Origin: Candidatus Saccharimonadales bacterium
GTDB lineage: Bacteria; Patescibacteriota; Saccharimonadia; UBA4664; SCTI01
DNA length: 64,000 bases
Assembly (NCBI GenBank): GCA_035479795.1
Contig: DATIII010000004.1
Location: 15,668-79,667 of the forward strand
Direction of reading: 5' to 3'
The notes beneath the pieces are model-generated. The model saw only the letters and a list, made by a program, of their open reading frames with translations. It was not told where the DNA came from and made no database searches. Made by a program: the position numbers and the translations under genes. The first letter of the stretch is position 1; every line of letters starts with the position of its first letter. Of the stretch, positions 16,553 through 51,890 are shown piece by piece.

Positions 16553-16637
16553 GCTCCGGGATGCGGGATACGGGATGCAGAATACAGAAATAACTATGAG
16601 CTTCTCCGAATCCTGAATCCTGAATCCTGAATCCTGT
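16553..16637. repeat. Inverted arrays of tandem heptamers (CGGGATR x3-4 ... GAATCCT x4) immediately upstream of the regulator start
   Basis: ccgggatgcgggatacgggatgcagaatacag ... ccgaatcctgaatcctgaatcctgaatcctg. Confidence 0.8.
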
Positions 16638-16639
16638 TC

Positions 16640-17758
16640 TCACGATTGTTCCACAAACTTAGTAAATAGAATGGCTAGTTTTATCTGCACCGCATCATCA
16701 AAGCTACGCGGGTCCAGATTAAGTGTTTCGGCTATGCGGTCCAGTCGATATACCAGGGTGTTGCGGTGAATCCCCAGTTCGTCGGCCGTCTGCGTCAGAC
16801 CCATGTTGTTTTTAAAGAAGCTCTCAAGCGTTTGAATCACGCCGTCGTTTTCGCCCAGCTTCTCGAGCAGCTCGCGGGAAAAGTAGATGTTGCTTTCATC
16901 AATACCAGATAGCAAGGGAGCCACCACACCAAAGTCGTCGATGTGATACACCCGGTCTTTATCCCAGTTTTGCGCGCCCAGCTCGATGGCCGAAATAGCC
17001 TCGGAGTAGCTAGTGCGCAGGCCGTCCACCCCGGGGTGGTAGTTGCCAATACCGACAGTGGTGGGGCTTTTGAGCTCACCTCGGAAGATTTGGTAGATGG
17101 TGTGGATTGATTTTTTGAACCGGTCCAGTGATTCTTCCAGCGAAGTTTCGCCGCCATTTAGGTCCTTTAAAATGCAGAAGGCATTATTGCCAAGGTAGGC
17201 GATAATGTTTGATTTACTCGAGGTGTAATAAGAGTTCAAGCCGCGGCTAATGCCGAATTTGTAGCGCGTGATGCGCATTTCGCGGTCGCCTTCGTCGCGG
17301 GTCTCGCCGGTTAATACCGGATCGTCGACGGTTACTACAATGGCAATGCGCGGCACGCTCAGGTCGATGTCGAACAGCCGAGCCTCGGCGGTGATCAGTC
17401 GATCGTCGGTGGAGTGCCCGGCCAATAGGTCGTATACAAATTTATCCAGCCGTTCTTCCTGGTGGGGGAGCTGCTCAATCAGGATGGTTTGGTGCAGCAG
17501 TAGCTCGGCTATTGATCGAATCAGCGGGGCGATTTCTTCATGATTCGGCATCTGCCGGCTGAGTAAGACATAGCCCGTGGGCTTGGCGCTGTGCTGGACC
17601 ACGATGGCCCATGGATAATTGCTAATATCCAGGCTCTCCTGGACGTTGGGATCGTTTGTGGATAAAACAGTCCCCTCGGTGTCTACCACCGAAAGTGGCT
17701 GATTAACCAGGGCGCCGACCTTATCTTGGATGCGCTCCGCGATATGCTGGTTTAGCAC
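16640..17758 (-). CDS. CdaR/PucR-family transcriptional regulator (paralog)
   Basis: C-terminal HTH LGIHRNTLVYRLDRIAETLNLDPRSFDDAVQIKLAILF. Confidence 0.75.
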   Translation of the reverse strand: MLNQHIAERIQDKVGALVNQPLSVVDTEGTVLSTNDPNVQESLDISNYPWAIVVQHSAKPTGYVLLSRQMPNHEEIAPLIRSIAELLLHQTILIEQLPHQEERLDKFVYDLLAGHSTDDRLITAEARLFDIDLSVPRIAIVVTVDDPVLTGETRDEGDREMRITRYKFGISRGLNSYYTSSKSNIIAYLGNNAFCILKDLNGGETSLEESLDRFKKSIHTIYQIFRGELKSPTTVGIGNYHPGVDGLRTSYSEAISAIELGAQNWDKDRVYHIDDFGVVAPLLSGIDESNIYFSRELLEKLGENDGVIQTLESFFKNNMGLTQTADELGIHRNTLVYRLDRIAETLNLDPRSFDDAVQIKLAILFTKFVEQS

Positions 17759-17941
17759 CGATCCTACCTCCTCACGTAAATCACTTTTGTGATCTTGCCT
17801 AACAAGATTACCTTGCGAACCTTAAGCGTAGCAAGCACAAGCAGGATGCGTTTTTGGATAATTGCAGCATAAGCGCTAAAGGTAATAATGGCCGGGTACG
17901 ATCTCTCGCACCCGGCCATTCACGCCGGCCTGTCACGGCTG

Positions 17942-18529
17942 TCAGCTGTCGATGCCGTCCGTCTCCGGTGGCTCCGTCTTGAGCTTGGTGTCGGACTTGA
18001 GCTTGATGGCAGCCGGCTTGATCTGGAACTGCTCCTCCGGATCGTTGACGGTGATGCCCTTGATCTTGCGGGCGTCGCGCAGAGCATCATCATCGTCTTT
18101 GAGTCTGTCCTTGACGATGATCCGCTTGGGTTCGGTGAACCGTTCGCTCCAGCCCCTCCGAGCAATGTCAGCTAGAGCCTTGTCTTCGTCATCGATACTG
18201 ACGGAGAGGGTGGTGGGCTTGAAGACCAGTTCGCCGTTAGGCAGTCGGATCGTCTTGGTCTCGCCGCGACCCTTCGCCAGCTCATCGCGGTAGTCATCGG
18301 CGAAGAGCTCCAGATCGGCTTCAAGTGCCGGAATGGCTTCGATGTCAGCCTGGATGTCAGCCTGGGCAGCCGCTACCAGGGTTGCCACTGTGGCATCGAG
18401 CTCGGCTTGCCGTCTGGCCACAGCGGCGTAAATACGCCGCAGCTCGCCGAGGTTGTTGTTGGCTTGGGTGATCTCCCCTGGAGGCACATTTGGATGTGCC
18501 GGGAGAGCGGGTGCTGCGTTAGCTCCCAT
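17942..18529 (-). CDS. Phage Mu Gam-like protein (host-nuclease inhibitor family)
   Basis: N-terminal coiled coil, then KTIRLPNGELVFKPTTLSVSIDDEDKALADIARRGWSERFTEPKRIIVKDRL...GITVNDPEEQFQIKP, matching the Gam-like family. GC-rich islet. Confidence 0.55.
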   Translation of the reverse strand: MGANAAPALPAHPNVPPGEITQANNNLGELRRIYAAVARRQAELDATVATLVAAAQADIQADIEAIPALEADLELFADDYRDELAKGRGETKTIRLPNGELVFKPTTLSVSIDDEDKALADIARRGWSERFTEPKRIIVKDRLKDDDDALRDARKIKGITVNDPEEQFQIKPAAIKLKSDTKLKTEPPETDGIDS

Positions 18530-18602
18530 GGTGCTCCAGTCTCTCGAATTTGGACTAGACTAGTTTGCCAGATTAGGTTCAGATTGGCAAGCATAAGAGG
18601 CA

Positions 18603-18631
18603 GCATTACGCATTGAAAATAGCAGGGATAT
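18603..18631 (+). promoter_or_regulatory. Candidate sigma70 promoter for the tRNA-Val pair
   Basis: TTGAAA, 17 nt, TATATT; about 25 nt upstream of the tRNA. Confidence 0.45.
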
Positions 18632-18655
18632 AAGCTATATTCTTATCTGTTGCGC

Positions 18656-18732
18656 GGATCCTTAGCTCAGTTGGCTAGAGCACTTCATTGACGTTGAAGG
18701 GGTCAGAGGTTCGAGTCCTCTAGGATCCACCA
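18656..18732 (+). tRNA. tRNA-Val (anticodon GAC)
   Basis: GGATCCT/AGGATCC acceptor, anticodon loop TTGACGT, T-loop GGTTCGAGTCC, CCA encoded. Confidence 0.9.
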
Positions 18733-18845
18733 TTTTAAAAAGACGAATTTTAGAACCAAGCGAAGCTGTTCGGAAATTCGACAGGAACAGCGATGTGGAA
18801 GCTGAAGCAATGAGATTGCGTAAGCTGGAAGTGCCGCTGTGACGA

Positions 18846-18922
18846 GGATCTGTAGCTCAGTTGGTTAGAGCGCTTGATTCACATTCAAGAGGTCACAGGT
18901 TCGAGTCCTGTCAGATCCACCA
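18846..18922 (+). tRNA. tRNA-Val (anticodon CAC)
   Basis: GGATCTG/CAGATCC acceptor, anticodon loop TTCACAT, CCA encoded. Confidence 0.9.
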
Positions 18923-18923
18923 T

Positions 18924-18950
18924 TTCACCCGCTAGGGTGATTTTTTGTCA
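18924..18950 (+). terminator. Intrinsic terminator after the tRNA-Val pair
   Basis: TCACCCgctaGGGTGATTTTTTG. Confidence 0.6.
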
Positions 18951-19089
18951 CAGGACGTGGCGGTCATCTGGCGGATGATGTGCTTGCCGCGTCGATTGAC
19001 TGGGAGGTGCCAGAATGGGCCAAGGGCTGGCTGGCCTGAACGGTGTCGGGCCCGGAGATAAATCTGAGCCGGACACTCGACCTTTAATC

Positions 19090-19288
19090 CGGATTTGGTT
19101 ATTATGTATAGGTTGAGAGTTCAATAGAGCCCAAGCGAGAGTACCGCCTCGCCAGCTCCGTTACCGGTGACGTCACATCGGCCAAGAGTGCCTCGGCAAT
19201 GTCCGGGGAAGTTTGGTGGAACCGCTCGCTGTATAGTGAGTCCGAACGCGCAAGTATTTGCGTGTTTTTTGTTTTTTAAGCGAGGTAT
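19090..19288 (+). promoter_or_regulatory. T-box riboswitch leader (Thr specifier) controlling thrS
   Basis: T-box sequence AAGTTTGGTGGAACCGCTCG (UGGA complementary to the ACCA end of tRNA-Thr, whose discriminator is U). Stem-I-like AGAGA elements and an ACC codon in the GTTACCGGTGA loop. Terminator AACGCGCAAgtatTTGCGTGTTTTTTGTTTTTT ends 15 nt before the thrS start. Confidence 0.55.
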
Positions 19289-19291
19289 CAG

Positions 19292-21136
19292 ATGGCTGAA
19301 GTCAAAAAAACCAAAGAAAATGATTTGCATGCCATGCGGCATTCCATGTCTCATATACTGGCCACGGCTATGCAGTCATTATATAAGGGCGTTAAGTTTG
19401 GTGTGGGTCCGGTCATCGAAAACGGTTTTTATTATGATTTCGACCTCGGCGAGACAACTCTAAGTCCGGAGGACCTACCCAAGGTTGAGGCTGAGATGCG
19501 GGAGGTGATTAAGGCGGACTATCCGTTTGAGAGCCGCGAACATAGTCTGGAAGAAGCGATTGGTTACTTCGAAAAGCATGAGCAGCCGTATAAAGTTGAG
19601 CTTGTTCGCGACATCAAAAAGCATGGTACGACTGTAATGAGTGAGATTGAAGGTGGAGTGGCAGCAGGTGGTGATGTAGATAAAATCACAACAGTAACCT
19701 TCTACAAAATTGGTCCGTTCATTGATCTTTGCCGTGGCGGCCATCTGAAAAGCACCGGTGGGGCGGGTGCATTTAAGCTCACAAAAGTCTCGAGTGCGTA
19801 TTGGCGGGGTGATGAGAAAAACCCCCAGCTTCAGCGCATTTATGGAGTGGCCTTTGCCACCGAAGCCGAATTGAACAAATATTTGGAGCAAGTTGAAGAA
19901 GCCGAGAAGCGCGACCATCGTAAGCTAGGTTCGCAGTTGGATATCTTTGTTCAAAGTGAGATCGTCGGTGCTGGCTTGCCGCTCTTTACTCCAAATGGTA
20001 CCGCGATGATTAATGCCATGATGAACCTGGTGCGCGACATCAATACACCTGATGGATATGAGGAAGTCCGGACCGGCCACGTGACTCGAACTGAGCTCTA
20101 CAAGATATCTGGTCACCTCGATAAATTTGGCGACGACCTGTTTGTGGTGGAGGCCGGCGAAGACAAGCTTGCCATGAAGCCAATGAACTGCCCGCATCAT
20201 ACTCAGCTGTATGACCGAGAAATGCGCAGCTACCGCGACCTGCCGATCAAGTATGCCGAGTTTTCGACTCTGCATCGTAATGAGGTCAAGGGTGCGCTGG
20301 GGGGTCTGACCCGAGTACGGGCTCTAACCCAAGATGATGCCCACGCCTTCGTGCGGCCGGATCAGGTGGAGGGCGAGATTGAGATGGTGGTAAAACAGGT
20401 TGATCGACTTCTCAGCACGTATCATCTGGACTACCATGTGCGCCTAAGTTTGCGCGACCCGAAGGATATGAAGGCCTATCTCGGTGACGCCAAGGTGTGG
20501 GATAAGGCCGAAGCCATGCTCCGCGACCTGGCGGGTAAGTTCAAGATGAAGTTCGTGGAGGCGCAAGGCGAAGCGGCCTTCTACGGTCCAAAAATGGACT
20601 TCATGGCCGTCGATGCCATCGGCCGCGAGTGGCAGGTTTCGACTATCCAGCTGGATTTCCAGCAGCCGGAACGGTTTGATCTTAGCTTTGTGGATGAGAA
20701 GGGCGTTAAGCAAAGGCCGGTGATGATCCACCGCGCCTTGAATGGCACCTTTGAACGCATGCTGGGCATTTTGATCGAGCATTACGCCGGTAATTTCCCG
20801 GTTTGGCTCGCACCAGAGCAGGTGCGGCTGGCCACGGTCAATGATTCCAAGGAAATTACCGATAAAGCCTATGAAATGCGAGATGCGTTGAAGATTGCGG
20901 GCCTGCGCACGGAGCTGGATGTGTCCAGCGAATCAGTGGGCAAGAAGATCCGCGCCGCCAGTCTGGCCAAGGTGCCGTATACGATCGTGGTGGGCGAGCG
21001 CGAGGCGGCCGGCGAGCCGGTGTCTGTTCGATTACGCGCCGATATGGGTGAGAAGGATGTGAAAGTGAAGTTTGATAAATTCATCGAAACCGTAAAGCAG
21101 GAGGTCGCCGACCGTGTCGGCCAAAGCTCACTCTGA
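19292..21136 (+). CDS. thrS: Threonyl-tRNA synthetase
   Basis: 614 aa; class II aaRS core with C-terminal anticodon-binding domain; GAGG Shine-Dalgarno. Confidence 0.9.
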   Translation: MAEVKKTKENDLHAMRHSMSHILATAMQSLYKGVKFGVGPVIENGFYYDFDLGETTLSPEDLPKVEAEMREVIKADYPFESREHSLEEAIGYFEKHEQPYKVELVRDIKKHGTTVMSEIEGGVAAGGDVDKITTVTFYKIGPFIDLCRGGHLKSTGGAGAFKLTKVSSAYWRGDEKNPQLQRIYGVAFATEAELNKYLEQVEEAEKRDHRKLGSQLDIFVQSEIVGAGLPLFTPNGTAMINAMMNLVRDINTPDGYEEVRTGHVTRTELYKISGHLDKFGDDLFVVEAGEDKLAMKPMNCPHHTQLYDREMRSYRDLPIKYAEFSTLHRNEVKGALGGLTRVRALTQDDAHAFVRPDQVEGEIEMVVKQVDRLLSTYHLDYHVRLSLRDPKDMKAYLGDAKVWDKAEAMLRDLAGKFKMKFVEAQGEAAFYGPKMDFMAVDAIGREWQVSTIQLDFQQPERFDLSFVDEKGVKQRPVMIHRALNGTFERMLGILIEHYAGNFPVWLAPEQVRLATVNDSKEITDKAYEMRDALKIAGLRTELDVSSESVGKKIRAASLAKVPYTIVVGEREAAGEPVSVRLRADMGEKDVKVKFDKFIETVKQEVADRVGQSSL

Positions 21137-21947: not shown

Positions 21948-22267
21948 CACAGCGACAGGTTAATCAGTTTAGTCAGGATGTTTACGACATCGTTGCCCAG
22001 ATTCCCAAAGGTCGGGTGATGACATATGGGCAGATTGCTGCTCTGTGTGGCAGTCCACGGTCGGCACGGATTGTTGGGCAGGTGGCACACTGGGGGCCGC
22101 TGGAGCTGCCATGGCAACGGGTGGTTAATAAGAGTGGCGGCTTAGCAGGCGGGTATACCACAGGTGGCCGCGAAGCCCACAAACGTGACTTGGAGGCCGA
22201 TGGAGTTGTGGTGAATGATTATCGGGTGGATGTCGATCGTTTGATCTGGTGGCCGACCGATGTCTAA
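21944..22267 (+). CDS. MGMT-family DNA-binding domain protein (alkyltransferase-like)
   Basis: IPKGRVMTYGQIAALCGSPRSARIVGQV matches the methylated-DNA-protein-cysteine methyltransferase C-terminal domain. Confidence 0.65.
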   Translation: MTQRQVNQFSQDVYDIVAQIPKGRVMTYGQIAALCGSPRSARIVGQVAHWGPLELPWQRVVNKSGGLAGGYTTGGREAHKRDLEADGVVVNDYRVDVDRLIWWPTDV

Positions 22268-23120: not shown

Positions 23121-23187
23121 CGCGGCGATCTCAAATGCTGGATTGCCGCACTCGCTCTAGGGTGACGGATGAGGGTATAATTTTCAT

Positions 23188-29493: not shown

Positions 29494-29523
29494 TGGATCC
29501 CGAATACTCAATCCTGTATCCTG
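29494..29523. repeat. Short AATCC/ATCCT heptamer-like array
   Basis: GGATCCCGAATACTCAATCCTGTATCCTG. Confidence 0.5.
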
Positions 29524-32355: not shown

Positions 32356-32414
32356 ATAACGCGCCGCTAACAAGAAGTAGCTTTCCGGTCTCAACTAGCC
32401 TATAATCCATCCTT

Positions 32415-33008: not shown

Positions 33009-33384
33009 GCTAAGGCTGCTGGATGGCTGCTCGCCAGAGGCGAGAGGAAAGTCCGGACAGCACAGAGTAAGGACGGTTGCTAACGGCAACCGGGACCAGG
33101 GAATGTGTTTCTCTCGAGAAAACATAGGCCCAAAGCCTAGGGAAAGTGCCACAGAAACGATACCGCTCACCATTTTGTGAGTAAGGGTGAAACGAGCAGG
33201 GTAAGAGCCTGCAGCCCCTCCGGGTGACCGGCGGGGGAGGTAAACCCCGTCTGCTGCAAGGCTGCTGGCAATCAGAGAGTACTCGCTCCTGCCAGCGTTC
33301 GCGCCGCACGACCCCGACGGTGACGTCGGGGCTAGATAGATGGCCATCCAATCCGCCAGCTGGCGGAGGGACAGAATCCGGCTT
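33009..33384 (+). ncRNA. rnpB: RNase P RNA (bacterial type A)
   Basis: P1 helix GCTAAGGCTGC (33009-19) pairs with GCAGCCTTAGC (33370-80). Conserved GAGGAAAGTCCGG, ACAGAAACGATACCGC and GGGTGAAACGAGCAGGGTAAGAGC blocks. Overlapping track ORFs are spurious. Confidence 0.85.
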
Positions 33385-33477
33385 ATAGGCAGCCTTAGCT
33401 TAGAATAATTATCCTTCCCGAGGGGAGGGTTTTTATTTTTCAACCTGATAAAATAGTTATGTAAAAAGTGTGAGTTT

Positions 33478-34932
33478 TTGAGAAAAAGAAGCGAGTTAAT
33501 ATTTAGCCTACTGCAGCTGCCAATTGATTTCGTGGCAATTTTGACAGCCTTTGTGGCGGCCTACGCCCTGCGCGTGAAGATTGATGCCCGTCCGGTAGCT
33601 CATCCGCTGGGCTTTATGTTCTTTTTGAAGATTTTCCTGCTGATCATCCCGGTTTGGGTCATACTTTTCGCCCTGAGCGGATTGTACAACCTTTCGAGTC
33701 TACGGGGTCGGCTTAAGGAAATTAGTCGAGTATTTGTGGCCGTTTCGGCCGGAGTCATGTTTATGATTGTGGTCGATTTTCTTTCCAAAGATCCGTTATT
33801 CCCTTCAAAGTCGGTACCGATTTACGCCTATGGCTTGAGCTTAATAACCGTAATCGCGGCGAGAGAGATTATGAGGGCTGTGCAACGCAGCTTGTTTCGT
33901 AAGGGCATTGGGGTTTATCAGGCGGTTTTGATTGGCAGCGGGCCCATTGCTCAGAAGATCGCCGAATCACTCAAATCGGCTAGACACTCGGGCTATAAGA
34001 TCATCGGGGTTATCGATAGTGCCAGGGGGGCTCAGAAGCGAATGACGCCTTTGCGAGTCGATAGTAATTTTCAAAACCTGCTTAACCGACTCAAAAACAA
34101 ACAGATTGATGAGTTTATTCAAGCCGACTCATCGCTAGAGCCCGATGAGGTTTATGAAGTGGTGGAGTATGCCGCCAACCATCATCTTACCTACCGATTT
34201 GTGCCTAATCAGCTTGGTATTTTCGCCACACATTCCGAGGTGGGTACGATGGCGGGTATGCCCATGATCGGCATAAAGCCAACTCCGCTAGACGGATGGG
34301 GGAGGATTGTGAAACGACTGTTCGATATGACAGCTTCACTTTTAGGCTTGCTGGTTCTGTCACCATTTTTCTTGGTCATTGCCGTTATTATTCGAGTTAC
34401 CGATCCCGGGCCAGTGTTATTCAAGCATCGTCGATTGAGTCGAGTGGGCAAGGAGATTTATGTGTATAAGTTTCGCACGATGAAGGTCAGGTTCTCGAAA
34501 GGCGAGTTTGCCGGCAAATCGGATATTCAAGTTTTTCAGATACTGGGTCGTGACAACTTGGTAGAGGAGTTTAAGCGCGACCAAAAGGTACGGCGTGATC
34601 CAAGAGTCAGTAAAATAGGGGACCTTCTCCGCCGCTCGAGCTTGGATGAGCTACCGCAGCTTTGGAATATTTTCAAAGGTGATATTAGCCTGGTGGGGCC
34701 GCGACCGGTCGTCCAGGCAGAGCTGGAAAAATACGGCAGTGGGCGATCGACACTGCTATCCTTAAAGCCCGGCCTAACTGGTTTGTGGCAGGTTTCCGGT
34801 CGCAACGACGTGAGTTATGAGGAAAGGGTCAAGCTAGACCTGTTCTATATTGAAAATTGGAGTCTGTGGCTGGATATTCGGATTATCCTGCGTACACTCT
34901 TGATTCTGGTGACGCGCCGAGGAGCTTACTAG
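33478..34932 (+). CDS. Polyprenyl-phosphate sugar phosphotransferase (WbaP/CpsE family)
   Basis: N-terminal TM helices and C-terminal bacterial sugar-transferase domain with DELPQLWNIFKGDISLVGPRP. Confidence 0.8.
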   Translation: MRKRSELIFSLLQLPIDFVAILTAFVAAYALRVKIDARPVAHPLGFMFFLKIFLLIIPVWVILFALSGLYNLSSLRGRLKEISRVFVAVSAGVMFMIVVDFLSKDPLFPSKSVPIYAYGLSLITVIAAREIMRAVQRSLFRKGIGVYQAVLIGSGPIAQKIAESLKSARHSGYKIIGVIDSARGAQKRMTPLRVDSNFQNLLNRLKNKQIDEFIQADSSLEPDEVYEVVEYAANHHLTYRFVPNQLGIFATHSEVGTMAGMPMIGIKPTPLDGWGRIVKRLFDMTASLLGLLVLSPFFLVIAVIIRVTDPGPVLFKHRRLSRVGKEIYVYKFRTMKVRFSKGEFAGKSDIQVFQILGRDNLVEEFKRDQKVRRDPRVSKIGDLLRRSSLDELPQLWNIFKGDISLVGPRPVVQAELEKYGSGRSTLLSLKPGLTGLWQVSGRNDVSYEERVKLDLFYIENWSLWLDIRIILRTLLILVTRRGAY

Positions 34933-35017
34933 TGCCAGGATTCAGGATTCAGGATTCAGGGTTCAGGATTTTCAAGCTTCTCCTAAATTCTAAACTCCAC
35001 ACTCTAAACCCTGGCAC
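34924..35017. repeat. Inverted heptamer arrays (CAGGATT x5 ... degenerate TAAAYTC) upstream of the GT4 gene
   Basis: GTGCCAGGATTCAGGATTCAGGATTCAGGGTTCAGGATTTTC ... CTCCTAAATTCTAAACTCCACACTCTAAACCCTGGCAC, with flanking 8-bp inverted ends GTGCCAGG/CCTGGCAC. Confidence 0.75.
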
Positions 35018-35023
35018 TACCCT

Positions 35024-36130
35024 ATGAAGGTGGCGATTGTTCATGACTGGTTGGTCAGCCCGGGAGGCGCCGAGCAAGTGGTTCTTGAGTTGCACAAGCT
35101 ATGGCCGAAAGCTCCGATCTATACAGCAGCTTATGAGCCGTCAAAATTTCCGGAATTTAAAGATGCCGATGTGCGCCCAACCTGGCTAAACAAAATCGGT
35201 TTGGCAAAGCGAAAACATCAGCTCTTTTCGATTCCGCGAGCCTGGGCCTTTAAGGGTCTAGATTTATCGGAATATGATGTAGTTATTTCATCATCCAGCG
35301 CTGAGTCTAAATATGTTAAGACCGGTCCAAATACTCTACATATCTGTTACTGTCATACACCAATTCGGTATTATTGGAGCGATTTTGACTGGTATCGCCA
35401 GCATCCACCATTTGGAAAGCTCAATTGGTTAGCATCACTTATCCTGCCGTTTATCATCGGACCTTTAAGGCGAATGGATTACAAAGCCGCTCAAAAGATC
35501 GATTTGTATGTCGCCAACTCCGAAAATGTTCGCAAGCGTATTAAGAAATACTACAATCGCGATGCCGTGGTCATATATCCCCCGGTAGCCACGGGTAAGT
35601 TTAAGGTGAAGCGAGAGCCACAGGACTTTTATTTGATTGTGGGTCGGCAGGTCGCCTACAAACGGCTGGACTTAGCCGTGGATGCTTTTAATGATCTTGA
35701 ACTGCCGCTCAAAGTGGCTGGGGCGGGGGAGGAGATTGGCAGGCAGAGGTCTCGGTCAAAATCGAATATTGAGTATCTGGGGCGGGTCAACGACGAAGAA
35801 TTAGCTGTTTTGTACGCTCAGGCCAAGGCCTTTATATTCCCACCTGAAGAAGACTTTGGAATTGTGCCCGTCGAGGCCCAGTCGGCCGGCTGCCCGGTGG
35901 TGGCCTATGGCAAAGGCGGGGCGCTGGAGACGGTAGTGGACGGCGAAACTGGCGTGTTCTTTACCAAGCAAACGCCCGAAGCGTTGGCTGATGCGGTTAA
36001 GCTGGCCGCTAAAACCAAGTTTGATGAAGCCAAAATCCGCCATCATGCAAAGCAGTTCGATGCAGCCGTTTTTGCTCGAAAGATTAGCCATTTGGTAGAC
36101 AGTGAATGGCAAAAATTTTCAAAAAAATAG
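35024..36130 (+). CDS. Family-4 (GT-B) glycosyltransferase
   Basis: E-x7-E motif EDFGIVPVEAQSAGCPVVA. Confidence 0.75.
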   Translation: MKVAIVHDWLVSPGGAEQVVLELHKLWPKAPIYTAAYEPSKFPEFKDADVRPTWLNKIGLAKRKHQLFSIPRAWAFKGLDLSEYDVVISSSSAESKYVKTGPNTLHICYCHTPIRYYWSDFDWYRQHPPFGKLNWLASLILPFIIGPLRRMDYKAAQKIDLYVANSENVRKRIKKYYNRDAVVIYPPVATGKFKVKREPQDFYLIVGRQVAYKRLDLAVDAFNDLELPLKVAGAGEEIGRQRSRSKSNIEYLGRVNDEELAVLYAQAKAFIFPPEEDFGIVPVEAQSAGCPVVAYGKGGALETVVDGETGVFFTKQTPEALADAVKLAAKTKFDEAKIRHHAKQFDAAVFARKISHLVDSEWQKFSKK

Positions 36131-37356: not shown

Positions 37357-37390
37357 CAATCTGGTCAATAAGTCGGGATTCAGTATTTAG
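37357..37390. repeat. Single-copy palindromic GGATTC...GAATCC motif upstream of infC
   Basis: GGGATTCAGTATTTAGAATCCAGAATGCAGG. Confidence 0.45.
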
Positions 37391-37411
37391 AATCCAGAAT
37401 GCAGGAGAAAA

Positions 37412-41925: not shown

Positions 41926-42413
41926 GTTCTTCGGCGCCCGCAGGGACGTGCCGAGGACTGTACCGACAGCAACCAAGGAGAGTCATGTCATGGTCACGCA
42001 CTAGCGTGAAGACCCATGACGCTCCGTCGGAGCCGGCCTCGGGTTAGAGTCCGCTTCGGCGGGCGTCAAAAACTTCTTTCCGGCGGGCAACTTGACGCCC
42101 GCCCGTCCGGATCGAAGACAAGTACCAGGTCTGGCAGTCGACAGCCATTGACCTGAAAACATGGGATAGAGCCGAGGGCGTTGATCCGTCCAGCGGGGAT
42201 CGTCCTCGGCCTACTCCTGACAGACTTCAGTCCCAGCCGTTAAAACTTCGGACCATGGATGGTCCGCTCGTGGTGATCCGCCATCCCTGGATCACACGCA
42301 TGGCGCCGGGCCCGGGCACACAACTCAACCGCTTTCATCGGGCGGTGCGAGGTGCTCGGGCCGCGGCCCAACCCCAGTTTTCGAATCCCGAAAGCTGGGG
42401 ATTCTTTTTTTTA
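41926..42413 (+). ncRNA. Candidate structured noncoding RNA of unknown class (about 490 nt, GC-rich)
   Basis: Bounded by the promoter above and a 12-bp-stem terminator (CCCCAGTTTTCG-aatcc-CGAAAGCTGGGG + T9 at 42372-42413). No M-started ORF of 60 aa or more in any frame. Contains an AAGGAG-led 20-codon ORF and strong alternative hairpins. Confidence 0.4.
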
Positions 42414-42466
42414 GGCTTTCGAATTAAGAATTAGGCTTTCAGCTTTAAGCTTTGGGCTTTCGTCCT
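42405..42466. repeat. GGCTTTC heptamer repeat cluster
   Basis: AGGCTTTCgaattaagaattAGGCTTTCAGCTTTAAGCTTTGGGCTTTCG. Confidence 0.6.
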
Positions 42467-43719
42467 GCCGCGGCGTAGCCTTTTAGAACATTCTCATATA
42501 AATGCTCGAGCTCGTGGGCTTGGTGATCTACCGAGTATTTTGCCGCCAGCTTGATACTGGCCTTGCCCATGGCTTTACGCTTGTCATTATCTTCTAAAAT
42601 CAGGCCAATCTTTTTAGCGAAGTCGCGAGCCGAATTACGAGCAATGTAGCCATTAACTCCATTCTTCACTATTTCGGTAATTTCTTTATCAATCATCACA
42701 ATCGGCAGGCCAGCCGAAGCCGCCTCGTGGATCACCAGACCCTGAGTATCAGTGCGAGAAGGGAAGGCAAATACGTCGGCGCTGGCGTAGGCGGCACCTA
42801 GGCGTTCATGGCTGACATAGCCGGTAAATATAACTCGGTCAGCAATGCCGAGCTCATGTGCCATGGCAGCTAGCTTGCCTTGATGCTCGTGTCGGCCGAC
42901 TAGCAGTACAACCAAATCGGAGTTGGTATGAGCTAGAATGGCGGCTGCCGACAAAAGTAGTTCAATATTCTTTTCACTGCCCAGGCGGCCTGCAAACATT
43001 ACTACTTGATGATGAGGTTTAATGCCAAAACGCTTCTTAAAACTGATGACTCCCTGGTGGGATGTTGTGATTTCATCTACACCAGTCGGCAAAATTCGGA
43101 TTGGTGCCTTAGTGCCCCAGGATTTGAGTTGGCGTTCAATTTTGCGCGATGGGGCAATGATGCGATCACATTGGTTGTGCAGCATAGTGACGCCGCGGAC
43201 GACCATTTTCTTATTCCATTTATCAATATTGCGCTCGGGTTTAATACTGGATATGGCCGATCGTAGGTCGCCAATGCCGCCGCGCGTAATAAAGGGTGCG
43301 AGGATGGATAGGGCAATGGTGCCCGGCAGTACCTGTGGGTAGTGTGAAACATATTCATAAAGATCGGTATGGTAGGTGGCCATGAGCGGTACATTGTTGC
43401 GCAGGGCAAAGTAGGCACCGAGCAGCCCGATCTGGCTCGGTGTATGGAAGTGAATTACATCCAGCTTCTTATTTTTAATCATCTGCAGGGCCTGAGGGGG
43501 GAAGAAGATACTGGTCAGATAGTCGTCGTAGAACAGTCCCTTGACGGCCGGGAAACGGATAATGTTTTTGGTGCGCTCCTTGTAACGGATGCTGGGAGCT
43601 GGTGCGAAGACAAACACCTCGTGTCCCATAGACTCTAGCGCCACTCGGAAAGATTCTATGGAATAGGAAATTCCGTCGAGAGACGGAAGGTAGGAATCGC
43701 TAAACAAGCCGATACGCAT
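42445..43719 (-). CDS. Family-4 (GT-B) glycosyltransferase, possibly glycolipid synthase
   Basis: E-x7-E motif FPSRTDTQGLVIHEAASAGLPIV. Confidence 0.7.
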   Translation of the reverse strand: MRIGLFSDSYLPSLDGISYSIESFRVALESMGHEVFVFAPAPSIRYKERTKNIIRFPAVKGLFYDDYLTSIFFPPQALQMIKNKKLDVIHFHTPSQIGLLGAYFALRNNVPLMATYHTDLYEYVSHYPQVLPGTIALSILAPFITRGGIGDLRSAISSIKPERNIDKWNKKMVVRGVTMLHNQCDRIIAPSRKIERQLKSWGTKAPIRILPTGVDEITTSHQGVISFKKRFGIKPHHQVVMFAGRLGSEKNIELLLSAAAILAHTNSDLVVLLVGRHEHQGKLAAMAHELGIADRVIFTGYVSHERLGAAYASADVFAFPSRTDTQGLVIHEAASAGLPIVMIDKEITEIVKNGVNGYIARNSARDFAKKIGLILEDNDKRKAMGKASIKLAAKYSVDHQAHELEHLYENVLKGYAAAGRKPKA

Positions 43720-43722
43720 ACT

Positions 43723-43832
43723 CGAAGGATACAGGATTGAGGATACAGGATCCAGAATATGGAGATCGATAAGTCCTTAGCGAAGCCTAAAACGTGTGCT
43801 GTATCCCGAATCCCGAATCCTGTATTCTGTTG
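43723..43832. repeat. Inverted heptamer arrays (GGATWCA x4 ... TGWATCC x4) in a divergent promoter region
   Basis: AAGGATACAGGATTGAGGATACAGGATCCAGAATATGG ... GCTGTATCCCGAATCCCGAATCCTGTATTCTG. Confidence 0.8.
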
Positions 43833-43834
43833 GT

Positions 43835-44848
43835 ATGCATAAGCGTTTGCGGGTGAATGTGGTTTCCGAATCGGCCTTTACGGTGCAAGGCCACGGCGTG
43901 CATACGGCTTTTGAAGAGACGGTGCGGATGCTGCAGTGGGCAAAGAATATGACTGTGGCCTCTAATTCCAACCTGCCAGCCGATATCGTGCACATCCATA
44001 CGGTTGGCGTCTACTCATTATGGAAGTTACTTTTCAGCCGAGGTCGCAAAGTTATATCGGCGCATGTTACGCCGGATTCGTTTGTGGGCAGCCTGGTGGG
44101 TGCTCGCACTTGGTACCCATTGGCTCGTTGGTACCTACGGTGGTTCTATAATCGGGCCGACGGAGTTTTGGCTGTCAGCCACGAAGTTCAAGATGAGCTG
44201 AAGGAGTTAGGCATTACCAAGCCGGTTTATCTAATGCCCAACACCATTGATGTTAGGCCATATAAATCGACTCCGGCTATCAAAAAGGCGGCGCGTAAGC
44301 ATTTGGGCATTGGCGAATCCGAGTTTGTAGTAATCTGTTGTGGCCAAGTCCAGCCCCGCAAGCGGGTTGATACATTTATTCAATGCGCTCGCGATCTGCC
44401 TGATGTTAAGTTCGTTTGGGTTGGCGGAGTGCCCTTTAAGCGAGTAGCTGCCGATTACGGCCATATGAAGCATCTAATGGCCGATCATCCGGTAAATGTT
44501 ACCTTCACCGGAGTGATTAGCCATGCCGACGTGGTGGCCTATTATCAGGCGGCTGATCTCTTCTTTTTACCGTCTGTCCAGGAAACCTTCGGTATCGTCG
44601 TTATCGAAGCAGTGGCGGCGGGGTTGCCGGTACTCTTGCGTGACATCGACCAGTACGAGAAGACCTTCAAGGGCTGGTATTTGAAGGGCGATGAACGTAG
44701 CTTCACCGGGATCATTCATCATTTACAGCATGATAAGAAAGCCTATGCCACGGCCGTGAAGCAGTCGGCACCCATAGCCGAAGAGTACAGCAGTGAACGT
44801 GGGCGCCAGCTGTTGCTTGATATCTACACCCAAGTTTTGCAGCGCTAA
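43835..44848 (+). CDS. Family-4 (GT-B) glycosyltransferase
   Basis: E-x7-E motif FFLPSVQETFGIVVIEAVAAGLPVLL. ORF opens at 43796 inside the repeat array; ATG 43835 preferred. Confidence 0.7.
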   Translation: MHKRLRVNVVSESAFTVQGHGVHTAFEETVRMLQWAKNMTVASNSNLPADIVHIHTVGVYSLWKLLFSRGRKVISAHVTPDSFVGSLVGARTWYPLARWYLRWFYNRADGVLAVSHEVQDELKELGITKPVYLMPNTIDVRPYKSTPAIKKAARKHLGIGESEFVVICCGQVQPRKRVDTFIQCARDLPDVKFVWVGGVPFKRVAADYGHMKHLMADHPVNVTFTGVISHADVVAYYQAADLFFLPSVQETFGIVVIEAVAAGLPVLLRDIDQYEKTFKGWYLKGDERSFTGIIHHLQHDKKAYATAVKQSAPIAEEYSSERGRQLLLDIYTQVLQR

Positions 44849-44863
44849 GCTATAATTAAGCTC

Positions 44864-46391: not shown

Positions 46392-46879
46392 AATACCTCC
46401 AATTAATGCTTTGATTTTCACAACAAAGCCGGCAGCAACCTACCACCAAGATCGAAAAAATCTGTCATTGGCGGGCATGATTTTTTGTTAGTTCGGCGCA
46501 CCCTTATGCTTTATTTCTTATCTGTAAAATGGTATTCTTTCCAAGCTGCATCGAGTATACTTTCATGCAGTTTGGACTAGGGGCTGACAAGCTTCGACGA
46601 TTGGACTTTTACAACTCGCGCCAGCAAGCCGCAGCCATGCGTTAATTGCACCAATCAACAAATCAGAACTTTGTTGCTCGGGTAAAGAGTCTGTTTCAGG
46701 CTCCCACGCTCGTACCTGCTTACGCTTAAGTAAGCCATCGGTACCTGACTCCAGATGGGGGTTCACCGGTGTCATTTATCTGGATGCTGCCGGCGGGACG
46801 CCAGACCCGCGGGTTTAAGACAGTTGGCTGCTCTAGTCGTTATTTTGTTTGTTTCAAGACGACTAGCTAAGCTTTAAAA

Positions 46880-46993
46880 CGAACTAAGCTTGTAGAAGGA
46901 CGAGAGGTAACCATTCGGACCGGGGTGCAATTCCCCGCAGCTCCACCAAAAGGGCGCCAGTAGCAACTGGTGCTTTTTTGTTATGATGAAGCC
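46880..46993 (+). promoter_or_regulatory. Structured 5' leader with terminator-like hairpin directly upstream of the hydrolase gene (candidate riboswitch or attenuator)
   Basis: CGGGGtgcaattCCCCG hairpin, then GCGCCAGTagcaaACTGGTGCTTTTTT ending 25 nt before ATG 46994. Confidence 0.3.
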
Positions 46994-48013: not shown

Positions 48014-48092
48014 AACGGGCAAGGCCCGGCTTATGCCAGGCCTCTAACAATCCCTGCCCTTCCTGCCGGCCTACTTGCCGGCGTCTCCGTTG

Positions 48093-48725: not shown

Positions 48726-48864
48726 AGCGCACCGGGCGCTAGCGACCGCGTCCCTGACAAATATTTACGATTATTTTCGGCTAAATTCGTGGGAATGAAA
48801 AAGCTTTCCTGTTATAAGCGAACGCCCCACCAGCCGGGCCAGCGGTTTGTTCGCTTGGTGTTGG

Positions 48865-49410
48865 TCAGTGGGGCAGTTTGGCGATGAAGCCGGGCAGCCG
48901 CTCCAGCAGTTCTTCGAGCGAAACTACTACTATGCCTGGGCTGCGTCGAACGGCGGATGCGGGCATGAGGTTGTACGGCAAACCATCTTCGCCGCAGGTT
49001 CGCAGGTCGTTGCGGTAGCCGATGACGGGGACGTTATGAGCGGCAGCCCAAACGACTTCGCAGACCGTACCGTTGTCTGGTGGTTCTCCGTCCAGGATGG
49101 CAATCAACATCTGCGCGTGGTCGCGGATGGTGTCATAGTGGTGGTCGCCCAGATCTAGCCACATCTCTGGCTGGTCGGTCTCGTCCGCCTCCTCAATACG
49201 AGAGACATCGACGCTCCATGGGTCCAGAATATGTACATGAGGCTCCAGGGCGGGGAGTAGTACATGGTCGTACCAGTACTTGGTCCCCTCAGCGAATCCG
49301 TTGGGATTGGCAATGTAGCAAGCCGGCTTATCAAGTTCCATTTCTATCCTTGTATTGGGGCTACAGGAACGCCAATATAATGTCGCTTTAGCAGACCCGC
49401 AACAAGTCAA
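48865..49410 (-). CDS. Nucleoside 2-deoxyribosyltransferase-like protein
   Basis: ACYIANPNGF...PDNGTVCEVVWAAAHNVPVIGY matches the NDT family (catalytic Glu in a DxGTxxExG context). Start may be 49341 (MELDK...). Confidence 0.6.
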   Translation of the reverse strand: MTCCGSAKATLYWRSCSPNTRIEMELDKPACYIANPNGFAEGTKYWYDHVLLPALEPHVHILDPWSVDVSRIEEADETDQPEMWLDLGDHHYDTIRDHAQMLIAILDGEPPDNGTVCEVVWAAAHNVPVIGYRNDLRTCGEDGLPYNLMPASAVRRSPGIVVVSLEELLERLPGFIAKLPH

Positions 49411-49952
49411 TTCTTTTTGATCAGGGCCGAAAGTTTGGCTACAAACTGCTGCTCGCGCCAGTAGCCTGGGTAGTCAATTAAGCCTTGGTTCACCACATTG
49501 ATCTTGGCTTCTTTGAGTGTCTCGGCTGCCATTTTATATGTCGTTGATTTGATCAAAATAATCTCCGTATCAGGTTCGGCAAGCTTATTTATTTTTACAA
49601 CAAGCTCTGGCAAACCAGCCTTGATAGCGGCGTGGCGTTCGCTGGTTTTGGTGCCGTGAGGCAATGATTGCTCCAGTGATTCGATTAGGTAGAATCCGTC
49701 GGCGGCAAAGCGTTCCAGCCATTTAACTTTGTCGCGGGCCAGTACCATCTCGGTGACCTCATGGGCTTCGGGGTAGATGGCGCGCATAGTATTCCAGAAC
49801 AGCCGGTCGTTTTCGGGGCGGCCGTCTTCATAAAAGTGCCGGGTACCTTTGTCCGATCCGCCGGCAGGAGGGGGCGACTCAGTCACCAGCAGCCATTTAA
49901 TATGCTTTGGCTTATATTTGGAACGTAACTTTTCGTAAGTGGCGTCGGCCAT
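49407..49952 (-). CDS. Hypothetical protein
   Basis: ATGA overlap with the NDT-like gene; start taken at MADATYEK (49952) to avoid the DUF2061 gene. Confidence 0.4.
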   Translation of the reverse strand: MADATYEKLRSKYKPKHIKWLLVTESPPPAGGSDKGTRHFYEDGRPENDRLFWNTMRAIYPEAHEVTEMVLARDKVKWLERFAADGFYLIESLEQSLPHGTKTSERHAAIKAGLPELVVKINKLAEPDTEIILIKSTTYKMAAETLKEAKINVVNQGLIDYPGYWREQQFVAKLSALIKKN

Positions 49953-49956
49953 AGGC

Positions 49957-50184
49957 CTATTGTACTTTCTGGCGCTTGGTTTTGCCCCAGTGGATCTGGT
50001 TCCAGACTCGTTCATGAAAATAATAGAGCGCGGCGCTCGCCAGGTTGGTGAGAACGATGATCGGCAGGGCGGTTTCAAGCCTGTGGGTGAATAGGAGGAT
50101 AATCGTTAAATCGGAACAGATGACGACCATCCGGAAGCTAAGAGACTTAACCAGTGATCGACTAGCGGCCTCATGGAAGGCCAC
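49957..50184 (-). CDS. DUF2061-family small membrane protein
   Basis: YYFHERVWNQIHWG motif characteristic of DUF2061. Confidence 0.55.
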   Translation of the reverse strand: MAFHEAASRSLVKSLSFRMVVICSDLTIILLFTHRLETALPIIVLTNLASAALYYFHERVWNQIHWGKTKRQKVQ

Positions 50185-51761
50185 TAGCTGGCCTCCAGCT
50201 GAATGATTTCCTCAACCGTCGTGATGCCAGCCAAAACTTTGTTTAGGCCGTCTTCCAGCAAAGTGGCCATGCCGTTTTTAACCGCCAAGGATTCAATGTC
50301 TTGAGCCGTGGTGCGATCGGGGGCCGTCATTAGCTTCTCGATATCCGGAGTAATGGCCATCATCTCAACTATGGCAATCCGGCCTTTATAGCCTAGGCCG
50401 TGGCATTCTTTACAGCCCTCACCTTTTTTAAGCTTTACGGTCTGCGGATTTATCTTGGGCTGTCGGTCAGGGGTGATTGTGGCCAAAGCCCGTTTTAAGA
50501 AGGCCTGCTCCTCTGCGGTGGCTGGTATTTCTTTGGCACAATTATCACAGATGCGGCGAGCTAGGCGCTGGGCAATAATCATCCGAATCGCAGATGGGAA
50601 TAGGGGGTTGGAGCCAATCATGTCCAGCATGCGGCTGATGGCCGTCGAAGCATTAGTGGCGTGGAAGGTAGAGAGCAAGAGGTGGCCGGTCAGGGCGGCC
50701 TGAAGAGCGGTTTTGGCAGTGTCGACGTCGCGAATTTCGCCGATCATGATGACATTCGGGTCTTCGCGCAGGACGGCCCGTAGCTTTTCAATAAACAGCT
50801 CCTTGTCATCACTTTTAACCGGTACTTGGCTAATGCCAGCGATGTCGTATTCTACCGGATCCTCTAGAGTAATGATCTTGGTCTCGGGATTATTTAGGCG
50901 ATTGATGATGGCGTATAGGGTCGAGGTCTTGCCCGAGCCGGTTGGGCCGACGGTTAGCATCATGCCGTTAGGGTGAGCGGTAACTTCGTCAATCCGCTGG
51001 ACCTGTGGCGGTGAGAATCCCATTTCTTCCAAGTGTAAGTTGCGGGTTTCGGCGTTAAATATCCGCACGACGATTTCTTCGCCGTGGAAGGAGGGAATGG
51101 TCTCAATCCGCATGTCCACCCGGCCAATTTCGGCGTGATTGTCCATAAGATCGTAGCTGATACGGCCAGTTTGGGGTTCATCTGAACCCCACTTTATCTC
51201 CGCCCGGGTCTGAAGATCGCTCAAGAATATCTTGTAGGCATCAGTCGCTACTTCGGTAATAGGGTGGAGAACGCCATCCAGCCGGAACCTGACCCGAGCC
51301 GAGTCGGTTTGGGGTTCGATGTGGATGTCGGAGGCCCCCAGCCAAAAGGCCAGTTGGGCAATTAAGCCAAAGGCGTCTTTAGGTGCGGCAATCTTAAGTT
51401 TGTTGCCAAAGGCCTTAAAGTCGCCGTCGCGTTCTGGTTGAAACTGGCGATAGTAAATATGATTGAGAATGTAATTGAAACCGCTCCGGGATATGGTTTT
51501 AAAGGTTAGTTGGGTATGGGCCACAGCCTGCTGCAGCTGGGGTAAGCGAGTTCGATCTGTCTGAGCTGTAATCCCCAGCTCGATGGCATGGTTGCCAGAC
51601 ACCTGCAGTGGCGCCACTTGGTATTCCCGAAGCTGCGCCAGGGACAATACGCCACCGGTGTCAGCCGCCTCCACGATATCAGTGGTGTCGGCGTAGGGGA
51701 TGCCGCTTTTGGTGGCTTCCGCCTGGGTTTTTAATTCTTCAACCGCCCTCGCATCACTCAT
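50184..51761 (-). CDS. Type II secretion/type IV pilus assembly ATPase (GspE/PilB family)
   Basis: Walker A VGPTGSGKTSTLYA, Asp box, His box, CxxC...CxxC tetracysteine. Confidence 0.85.
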   Translation of the reverse strand: MSDARAVEELKTQAEATKSGIPYADTTDIVEAADTGGVLSLAQLREYQVAPLQVSGNHAIELGITAQTDRTRLPQLQQAVAHTQLTFKTISRSGFNYILNHIYYRQFQPERDGDFKAFGNKLKIAAPKDAFGLIAQLAFWLGASDIHIEPQTDSARVRFRLDGVLHPITEVATDAYKIFLSDLQTRAEIKWGSDEPQTGRISYDLMDNHAEIGRVDMRIETIPSFHGEEIVVRIFNAETRNLHLEEMGFSPPQVQRIDEVTAHPNGMMLTVGPTGSGKTSTLYAIINRLNNPETKIITLEDPVEYDIAGISQVPVKSDDKELFIEKLRAVLREDPNVIMIGEIRDVDTAKTALQAALTGHLLLSTFHATNASTAISRMLDMIGSNPLFPSAIRMIIAQRLARRICDNCAKEIPATAEEQAFLKRALATITPDRQPKINPQTVKLKKGEGCKECHGLGYKGRIAIVEMMAITPDIEKLMTAPDRTTAQDIESLAVKNGMATLLEDGLNKVLAGITTVEEIIQLEAS

Positions 51762-51769
51762 TGCTTATA

Positions 51770-51890
51770 GAATATAGGATTCAGGATTCAGGATCCAGGA
51801 AAGAAGTGGCCAATCTAAGGAGACAGGATCTCGCATTGAGGATCAAAAGAGGGAATTTAAATCCTAGATCCTAAATCCTAGATCCTGTAA
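51770..51890. repeat. Inverted heptamer arrays (GGATTCA x3 ... AATCCTAGATCCT x2) in a divergent promoter region
   Basis: GAATATAGGATTCAGGATTCAGGATCCAGG ... GACAGGATCTCGCATTGAGGATC ... TTAAATCCTAGATCCTAAATCCTAGATCCTG. Confidence 0.8.

Follow-up and report, generated by a model that had tools for sequence, protein, structure and literature searches.

Dispersed palindromic arrays of the heptamer AGGATTC between genes of a Saccharimonadales bacterium, probably slippage-generated microsatellites

A 64,000-nucleotide stretch of the genome of Candidatus Saccharimonadales bacterium (assembly GCA_035479795.1, contig DATIII010000004.1, positions 15,668 to 79,667 of the forward strand; hereafter, the window) carries short tandem arrays of the heptamer AGGATTC, which at four sites occur as pairs facing each other across a spacer. 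On balance, these elements are probably dispersed heptanucleotide microsatellite palindromes, of the kind found as short tandemly repeated repetitive (STRR) sequences of cyanobacteria and as heptamer arrays in Xanthomonas and the Beggiatoaceae: generated by slippage, tolerated between genes and possibly co-opted locally. A preliminary description of the window had interpreted the arrays either as binding sites of a global regulator of envelope-glycan genes or as contingency repeats that switch surface-polysaccharide promoters. Both interpretations are disfavored by the data below, and any effect of the arrays on expression is most likely local and secondary.

Heptamer arrays in the window

Under a strict rule (at least three consecutive units, each with no more than two mismatches), the window contains six AGGATTC arrays, whereas 100 shuffles preserving dinucleotide composition averaged 0.01 and never gave more than one. 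Tandem Repeats Finder reports a period of 7 at all five sites (numbered 1–5 in Table 1), and together with direct reading and the shuffles it bears out the tandem heptamers that the preliminary description had placed in five intergenic regions; the unit GGATTCA named there is the same repeat as AGGATTC. On the plus strand, sites 1–4 consist of a purine-type array, a spacer of 11–55 nucleotides (nt), and a pyrimidine-type array of GAATCCT-like units. The purine arms of these sites, like the array of site 5, are made of three to five tandem heptamers and are interrupted. The second arm is often quite degenerate, arm-to-arm complementarity is imperfect (74–86%), units are poorly conserved within arrays, and both arm length and unit variants differ from copy to copy. 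In total, the window holds ten arms at six places, every one of them intergenic.

A second, reverse-complement array had been described 20–50 nt downstream at every site. It is present at sites 1–4, with the wider range of spacers given above, but the array of site 5 has no partner arm, and its orientation is opposite to the usual polarity rule (described below). The sixth place, near infC, had been read as a single palindromic copy and is in reality a decayed four-unit array (37373-37402). The palindrome AATCCGGATT (19085-19094), listed as a further copy ahead of the thrS leader, was dropped because about 60 perfect palindromes of 10 base pairs (bp) are expected by chance in 64 kb (64000/4^5); it is an ordinary one.

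Table 1. Heptamer arms of the window, read on the plus strand, with the gene boundaries next to them, and examples of TATAAT boxes
Place	Feature	Position (strand)	Units	Neighboring boundary
Site 1	purine-type arm, degenerate	16558..16592 (+)	GGGATGC GGGATAC GGGATGC AGAATAC AGAAATA	starts 9 nt from start codon (CAT 16546-16548) of minus-strand PucR-like gene 15373-16548
Site 1	pyrimidine-type arm	16608..16636 (+)	(GAATCCT)4, perfect	ends 3 nt before stop codon (TCA 16640-16642) of minus-strand PucR-like gene 16640-17758
Site 2	purine arm	34937..34971 (+)	(AGGATTC)3 AGGGTTC AGGATTT	
Site 2	pyrimidine arm, degenerate	34983..35019 (+)	CTAAATT CTAAACT CCACACT CTAAACC CTGGCACTA	outer stem ends 4 nt ahead of ATG at 35024 of GT4 gene
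Site 3	purine arm	43726..43760 (+)	AGGATAC AGGATTG AGGATAC AGGATCC AGAATAT	6 nt from start codon (CAT 43717-43719) of minus-strand GT4 gene
Site 3	pyrimidine arm	43801..43828 (+)	GTATCCC GAATCCC GAATCCT GTATTCT	precedes ATG at 43835 of plus-strand GT4 gene (337 aa as annotated in source record)
Site 4	purine arm	51769..51803 (+)	AGAATAT AGGATTC AGGATTC AGGATCC AGGAAAG	7 nt from start codon (CAT 51759-51761) of minus-strand PilB-like gene
Site 4	pyrimidine arm	51859..51893 (+)	AAATCCT AGATCCT AAATCCT AGATCCT GTAATGT	precedes GTG at 51901 of LytR_cpsA_psr gene
Site 5	solo pyrimidine-type array, degenerate	29495..29522 (+)	GGATCCC GAATACT CAATCCT GTATCCT	starts 4 nt past stop codon of M50 peptidase gene
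infC side	solo array, degenerate	37373..37402 (+)	GGGATTC AGTATTT AGAATCC AGAATGC AG	between DAGK-like gene and promoter-like site upstream of infC
	TATAAT box	3895-3900		
	TATAAT box	23176-23181		
	TATAAT box	32399-32404		
	TATAAT box	44851-44856		

Position relative to genes

The elements fill four intergenic gaps to 87–96% of their length, across every gene arrangement. At sites 1 and 2, the gap runs from a stop codon to the start codon that follows it on that strand; sites 3 and 4 separate divergent start codons, and site 5 comes after a stop codon. The identities proposed for the flanking genes are confirmed by Pfam: two PucR/CdaR-like regulators, a Bac_transf and a GT4 gene, two GT4 genes, a T2SSE (PilB-like) and a LytR_cpsA_psr gene, and the M50 peptidase gene. 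A survey of 20 kb more of the host contig revealed three further heptamer arrays. In one of them (L205, 14658-14761), the pyrimidine-type array GAATCCT GTATTCT AAATCCT GGATCCT runs exactly up to the first base of a tRNA-Arg(CCT) gene. Another, of the purine type, overlaps the TAG stop codon that ends a YkuD-family gene, and the gene after it has a TATAAT and a Shine–Dalgarno sequence of its own downstream of the array; the third gap holds a heptamer (AAAGCYT)n beside two AATCCTA units. Since the elements sit in all gene arrangements, the designation 'promoter-region element', under which they had been introduced, suits only some copies: it agrees with divergent sites 3 and 4, but not with sites 1 and 2 (stop to start), site 5 (after a stop), or the flanking copies that touch tRNA-Arg and a stop codon.

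A few neighboring features deserve mention. The two PucR/CdaR-like genes (15373-16548 and 16640-17758) are tandem paralogues with HTH_30 and GGDEF_2 domains, separated by the site 1 element only, and in the source contig a gene with a Phage_Mu_Gam domain lies just upstream of the pair (L132). The gene for RNase P RNA (class A, 241 bits; 33011-33401) immediately precedes the Bac_transf gene at site 2, and a tmRNA gene (92 bits) maps to 46580-46948 of the window.

A lineage-specific insertion at site 2

The history of site 2 can be traced in three syntenic relatives (L124, L126, and L127), which share the gene order Bac_transf, GT4, rplT, rpmI, infC and encode GT4 proteins 72–77% identical to that of site 2, the closest non-self homologue being 77% identical. 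The Bac_transf and GT4 genes overlap in L124 (TGATG) and abut in L127, and no heptamer array is present in ~31 kb of syntenic DNA from the three relatives. On these grounds, site 2 is a lineage-specific insertion of 91 nt placed exactly between stop and start, probably a recent gain of the host lineage. No direct target-site duplication is evident there. At the same junction, L126 has a different, GC-rich hairpin of ~115 nt (1763-1890; -77.8 kcal/mol, z score -5.2), and the Bac_transf/GT4 junction thus seems to accept long hairpin inserts repeatedly.

The outer 10-bp stems of site 2, TAGTGCCAGG (34930-34939) and CCTGGCACTA (35010-35019), pair perfectly, and the former takes in the stop codon of the Bac_transf gene. 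A Shine–Dalgarno-like GAGGAG sequence (34919-34924), inside the end of the upstream gene, is followed by 5 nt, the base of the hairpin and, beyond it, 4 nt before the ATG. If the hairpin is looped out, Shine–Dalgarno and ATG come to lie 9 nt apart, compared with 7 nt in the uninterrupted L124. This geometry suggests how an insert might be tolerated between coupled genes, with the caveat that GAGGAG is also dictated by the conserved C-terminus of the upstream protein. Phage T4 genes 38 and 25 have split ribosome-binding sites, in which a hairpin brings the Shine–Dalgarno sequence and the start codon to working distance, and the 5 + 4 nt arrangement of site 2 resembles them; however, the T4 hairpins are short and not built of repeats, whereas that of site 2 is long, composed of repeats, and a candidate for this role.

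Occurrence in other bacteria and in phages

A scan for (GGATTCA)3 across one genome per species, carried out with no control heptamer, returned at least 120 loci, and several genomes contribute three to five each among the matches listed. The phyla among these matches include Acidobacteriota, Armatimonadota, Gemmatimonadota, Bacteroidota, Planctomycetota, Chloroflexota, Cyanobacteria, and Patescibacteria, while the listed matches in Pseudomonadota span several classes and include cultured Aliivibrio, Pseudomonas, and Pseudoalteromonas. Ten randomly chosen neighbor genes encode GreA, an MFS transporter, LysR, an aminotransferase, YicC, AroE/AroK, PIG-L, DegT, RadC, and PntB, and no surface-glycan theme emerges among the neighbors of arrays elsewhere. 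Arrays can also be absent from one of two orthologous places: one in a Sideroxyarcus metagenome-assembled genome (MAG; L120) is missing at the corresponding position of a Gallionella MAG (L043).

Phage contigs contain 27 loci with an AGGATTC array, several of which have a facing arm. Three control heptamers, obtained by shuffling the unit at matched composition, gave 12, 27, and 5 loci in phage contigs and likewise occur as inverted pairs. For the control GATGTCA (L161-L172), neighboring arrays form a convergent inverted pair in 11 of 12 cases, with kinship among the contigs possible; facing arrays are therefore not peculiar to AGGATTC. The loci examined hold 211 classes of period-7 unit, which, together with the similar frequency and pairing of the controls, makes AGGATTC one of many such heptamers. 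Along the same lines, the host genome itself has several heptamer families, as the window contains a (GCTTTCA)~4 array and the flanking contig an (AAAGCYT)~4.6 array (L205, 19800-19831).

Two positional rules hold among the loci listed. The first is polarity: a purine arm followed by a pyrimidine arm outnumbers the reverse by 25:0 when neighboring arrays that satisfy the strict rule and lie no more than 200 nt apart are counted, and by 34:3 under a relaxed count that accepts partners of at least two units within 150 nt. All four window pairs obey it. The second is abutment: in 49/171 cases, a gene boundary is found no more than 10 nt from an array's outer edge, defined as the 5' end of the purine strand, against 5/163 for the inner edge, and the median distances are 40 and 124 nt, respectively. 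Outer-edge abutment holds for stop codons (27/64) and for start codons on the opposite strand (22/107). Start codons adjacent to arrays have a Shine–Dalgarno sequence in 1 of 29 cases, compared with 131/639 controls. The spacers have no conserved core, although for 6–7 of 34 the purine arm has a weak tail resembling AGGGAAA. The two arms of an element often differ systematically; the combination of AGGATTC in one arm and GCATCCY in the other recurs in several phyla and is seen in Gallionella loci, L104, and site 1 of the window.

These distributions bear on two alternative explanations. The omega repressor of plasmid pSM19035 is a ribbon-helix-helix protein that recognizes WATCACW heptads in direct and inverted orientation, and the arrays could likewise be operators for a heptad-binding protein, acting as a nucleoid protein or, in line with the main idea of the preliminary description, as a global regulator. 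The elements do resemble omega operators in their contiguous 7-bp units, direct and inverted, at promoters (sites 3 and 4), although the unit is AGGATTC rather than WATCACW. Their fixed polarity would also suit a bound protein, and a heptamer-binding partner has been proposed for Nostoc in a preprint (10.1101/2022.06.06.494920). Yet the arrays are missing from the syntenic relatives, half of the window copies lie away from promoters, and units are poorly conserved within each array. The same unit recurs in many unrelated phyla and in phages beside unrelated genes, the 211 unit classes coexist with it in array-bearing genomes, and composition-matched heptamers are about as frequent in phage contigs. 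A regulon of operators is thus weakly supported and, in our judgment, improbable; in its specific form, a regulator of envelope-glycan genes, it has no support, in view of the absence of site 2 from three relatives, the unrelated neighbors across phyla, and the controls that are about as common in phages.

A small non-autonomous mobile element, copied by an enzyme in trans, could likewise produce dispersed palindromes. Repetitive extragenic palindromic (REP) units are imperfect palindromes of 20–40 nt with a conserved head, mobilized by REP-associated tyrosine transposases (RAYTs), and the elements described here share with REP and REPIN sequences (REP doublets) the form of dispersed intergenic hairpin doublets of ~100 nt, tolerated between genes, with halves in fixed orientation. 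If the arrays were terminal inverted repeats of a REPIN or of a miniature inverted-repeat transposable element, the precise stop/start insertion at site 2, the scatter of many copies over single genomes and their bursts in some lineages, the fixed hairpin polarity, and the arm-type asymmetry shared by several Gallionella loci would all find a place. However, the arms are tandem heptamers with neither a conserved head nor a core, the copies have no common spacer and no shared termini beyond the units, and no conserved palindrome of 20–40 nt of the REP type was found, the heptamers alone being common to all copies. At sites 2 and 3, the outer stems consist of locus-specific flanks that take in stop and start codons, each copy has its own arm length and unit variants, and no target-site duplication was seen. 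No transposase was seen in the window, and no RAYT (Y1 transposase) gene was noted among the called genes of ~104 kb of the genome. We therefore judge mobility of this kind to be quite improbable.

Copy number and promoter-like boxes

A comparison of copy number, suggested in the preliminary description, gave different answers within and between species. Sites 2 and 4 are base-for-base identical in a MAG contig (CAZQMU010000002.1, GCA_964594805.1) and two independent Logan assemblies, the three deriving from two sequencing runs, although this is a weak test of length polymorphism, since assemblies collapse minority variants; one of the Logan contigs breaks off within the array of site 1. Between species, the orthologous arrays of Aliivibrio fischeri (L113, 7195-7245) and Aliivibrio sp. 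EL58 (L080, 2805-2860) have 7 and 9 units, respectively, within flanks that are 93% identical, and this exact two-unit difference indicates that slippage is real on an evolutionary time scale. The Aliivibrio arrays sit within a larger conserved palindromic intergenic element, and A. fischeri is genetically tractable.

All four genes at divergent sites 3 and 4 have a TAnnnT box 6–7 nt before the start codon (TATCCT, TATTCT, TATTCT, and TAATGT), a feature of ~10% of other window genes. The boxes are built from the outermost variant repeat unit: at site 3, TATCCT on the minus strand precedes the ATG of the GT4 gene (CAT 43717-43719) by 6 nt, as TATTCT (43823-43828) does the ATG at 43835, and at site 4, TAATGT (51888-51893) stands 7 nt before the GTG at 51901. 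Throughout the window, the distance between TAnnnT and the start codon peaks at 6–7 nt, many genes have a TATAAT 6–9 nt upstream of the start and no Shine–Dalgarno sequence (examples in Table 1), and only 21 of 71 crude gene calls are preceded by GGAG or GAGG. From this pattern, the host genome seems to produce many mRNAs with no leader or almost none. As a general rule for arrays, leaderless -10 boxes were rejected, for they hold in the host genome only (2/29 in other phyla against 34/639).

If the boxes at sites 3 and 4 are functional, the arrays there would be untranscribed DNA upstream of promoters. A gain or loss of units would then leave the sequence and spacing just upstream of the -10 box unchanged, which speaks against a phase switch of the spacing type. 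Neither a sigma-70-type promoter nor an intrinsic terminator was detected within the elements of sites 2–4 by a consensus scan, which did find canonical terminators elsewhere in the window (e.g., 42372-42410). One such terminator-like hairpin with its T run (CCCCAGTTTTCGAATCCCGAAAGCTGGGG ATTCTTTTTTTT) is followed by the (GCTTTCA)~4 array mentioned above (42372-42461).

If the arrays were contingency loci, slipped-strand gain and loss of heptamers would toggle surface-polysaccharide and pilus genes. In favor of this reading, the unit length of 7 nt is not divisible by three, GT4, LCP, and PilB-like genes are neighbors of the copies in the window, and the two Aliivibrio species differ by two units. 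But the arrays are interrupted and only three to five units long, they lie outside coding sequences and outside the -35/-10 interval, being upstream of the -10-like box at the divergent sites, and sites 2 and 4 did not vary among the three assemblies, within the limits of that test. Elsewhere, the flanking genes are housekeeping genes, and the Xanthomonas study discussed below also found random gene classes. A contingency switch is thus weakly contradicted, and we give it very little credence.

Folding and a possible role in RNA

Sites 2, 3, and 4 form long imperfect hairpins, in which one strand or both have z scores between -4 and -6. For site 2, folding is much stronger on the antisense strand than on the sense strand, and across 18 codirectional pairs the sense strand has no stability advantage (9 against 6 in a test of G-U versus A-C asymmetry), hence there is no sign of selection on RNA structure. 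Rfam returned no match at the gathering threshold for the whole window and none at E ≤ 1 for sites 1–4. As for the thrS leader (19100-19291), a hairpin and T run at ~19250-19280 look like a terminator and a GGTGGAACCGC motif recalls a T-box, with no Rfam T-box match even at E ≤ 1.

The arrays might nevertheless form an adaptive module at the RNA level, transcribed as purine arm, loop, pyrimidine arm, and AUG. Such a module could be a split ribosome-binding site or translational-coupling hairpin, a REP-like stabilizer of 3' ends, or a site for an RNA-binding protein with a period of 7 nt (S1, CsrA-like, or HutP-like). CsrB carries CAGGAUG repeats and the HutP site has the period (NAG-N4)n; the units CAGGAUU and CAGGAUG resemble the former, and the spacing agrees with the latter. 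Fixed polarity makes sense if an AGGA-rich arm must lie 5' of the AUG, and the loop-out at site 2 would set Shine–Dalgarno and ATG 9 nt apart. In addition, of 16 codirectional pairs found in other genomes, 5 have GAGG or GGAG ahead of the purine arm at a distance of at most 5 nt, as does site 2, and the scarcity of Shine–Dalgarno sequences at array-adjacent starts has a parallel in the TAACTGA repeats (PMC4679880).

Several observations run counter to this idea. The sense strand is no stabler than the antisense strand, and no Rfam family was recovered. If the -10-like boxes at divergent sites are real, the arrays there lie upstream of the transcription start and outside the mRNA, and translation has no bearing on the array that borders a tRNA gene. 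The GAGG-like flanks may be decayed repeat units, and the GAGGAG of site 2 is also fixed by the conserved R-G-A-Y C-terminus of the upstream protein. Taken together, we consider an RNA module unlikely, though the one rival to be taken most seriously.

Relation to known heptamer repeats

Intergenic heptamers are the most abundant class of long microsatellites in many bacteria, as reported by Mrazek in 2007 according to PMC4679880 and PMC4692102, and by the same accounts the length of 7 nt was proposed to match the segment held by the polymerase, favoring slippage. A close described counterpart is the (GGGANTN)n repeat of Xanthomonas, studied by Rehm et al. in 2015 (PMC4692102), which typically has ~4 units, is ~90% intergenic, and forms 70–75 convergent inverted pairs per genome. 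These arrays lie on average 28 nt from the open reading frame (ORF) on their 5' side and 160 nt from the next ORF, and are under-represented (7–8%) in divergent intergenic regions. They are transcribed, flank random gene classes and vary between species, and no function was found for them (PMC4692102). The window elements share with Xanthomonas GGGAATC the period of 7, a degenerate unit, ~4 units per array, an intergenic location, convergent pairs, closeness to the 5'-side ORF, neighbors of random gene classes, and turnover between species. In contrast, they have GG instead of a GGG run (except in part of site 1), two of the five sites are divergent, and the host belongs to the Saccharimonadales, within the candidate phyla radiation. 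With GG only, G-quadruplex formation is not credible here; it was rejected because the structure calls for GGG runs in four or more units and site 1 has three.

In cyanobacteria, STRR sequences made of GGGGA(T/C)T heptamers were described by Mazel et al. in 1990, as cited in PMC4692102. They are likewise dispersed intergenic tandem heptamers, often near starts or promoters, with the GGATT core of AGGATTC common to GGGGATT, but unit and lineage differ and inverted pairing is not their defining trait. In Nostoc, heptamer arrays had small and unclear effects on promoter reporters (10.1101/2022.06.06.494920). In marine Beggiatoaceae, MacGregor reported in 2015 TAACTGA arrays just upstream of starts without ribosome-binding sites (PMC4679880). 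The window elements resemble these in lying a few nt from starts that lack a canonical ribosome-binding site, in being scattered across phyla, and in carrying stop codons in all three frames of the repeat strand. However, TAACTGA repeats are nearly all direct, with a single indirect set beside 169 direct ones, whereas those of the window are typically inverted pairs and also follow stop codons.

The window elements thus carry the defining traits of the heptanucleotide repeat class, save G-quadruplex potential: at least three head-to-tail copies of 7 nt, many dispersed intergenic arrays, and gain or loss of whole units between relatives, to which are added the Xanthomonas-type traits of convergent facing arrays and greater closeness to the 5'-side ORF.

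Origin of the elements

We propose that arrays would be gained and resized by replication slippage in steps of 7 nt, that template switching from arm to arm may keep the two arms loosely alike, and that an array would persist where expression signals stay unbroken. Once in place, the element could loop out as a long imperfect hairpin, which at site 2 would keep the old GAGGAG and the ATG beyond it ~9 nt apart. At divergent sites, mutated units at the outer ends may supply or retain the -10-like box of leaderless-type promoters, a putative case of co-option. Two other origins were rejected. Healing of double-strand breaks by telomerase-like addition of G-rich repeats would place arrays centrally with unique sequence outside, the opposite of what is seen. 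Likewise, a seeding of arrays from Shine–Dalgarno sequences upstream of starts disagrees with the pyrimidine nature of the start-adjacent strand and with the small number of purine arrays (7/104) that end no more than 20 nt from a start.

Several findings weigh against an origin by slippage with neutral persistence. The strict purine-then-pyrimidine polarity is not accounted for by slippage and hairpin formation, as the reverse polarity would fold equally well. Similarly, the arms of one element often differ systematically (AGGATTC opposite GCATCCY), and frequent template switching would erase such differences. Array-adjacent starts mostly lack a Shine–Dalgarno sequence, in the proportions given above, and the arrays could actively aid translation initiation. 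Some copies, namely site 1 (z scores -1.3/-1.8) and that of L206 (-0.76), fold no better than shuffles.

Polarity, arm asymmetry, and the missing Shine–Dalgarno sequences keep a functional reading alive, whether an RNA module or a protein that reads heptads. In its broadest form, the abutting palindromes of fixed polarity would constitute a functional module across phyla, acting either as a device for translation initiation or coupling, in which an AGGA-rich 5' arm would be folded beside an AUG that has no Shine–Dalgarno sequence, or as the target of a protein reading a 7-nt period. Such a module would account for the polarity rule and for the missing Shine–Dalgarno sequences, but we hold it to be rather improbable.

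Significance

In the literature searched, an AGGATTC array was not found described as a bacterial repeat. What is new here is the presence of this unit across many phyla, including a reduced genome of the candidate phyla radiation, and in phages. The arrays obey both rules known from Xanthomonas, convergent polarity and an outer edge at the gene boundary, and the element can, as seen at site 2, insert cleanly between translationally coupled genes. The two rules are sharp enough for testing and are present in the tractable A. fischeri (locus L113). If they reflect a mechanism, a widespread genome feature would be explained; if they do not, annotators should class such arrays as microsatellites and not as regulatory sites.

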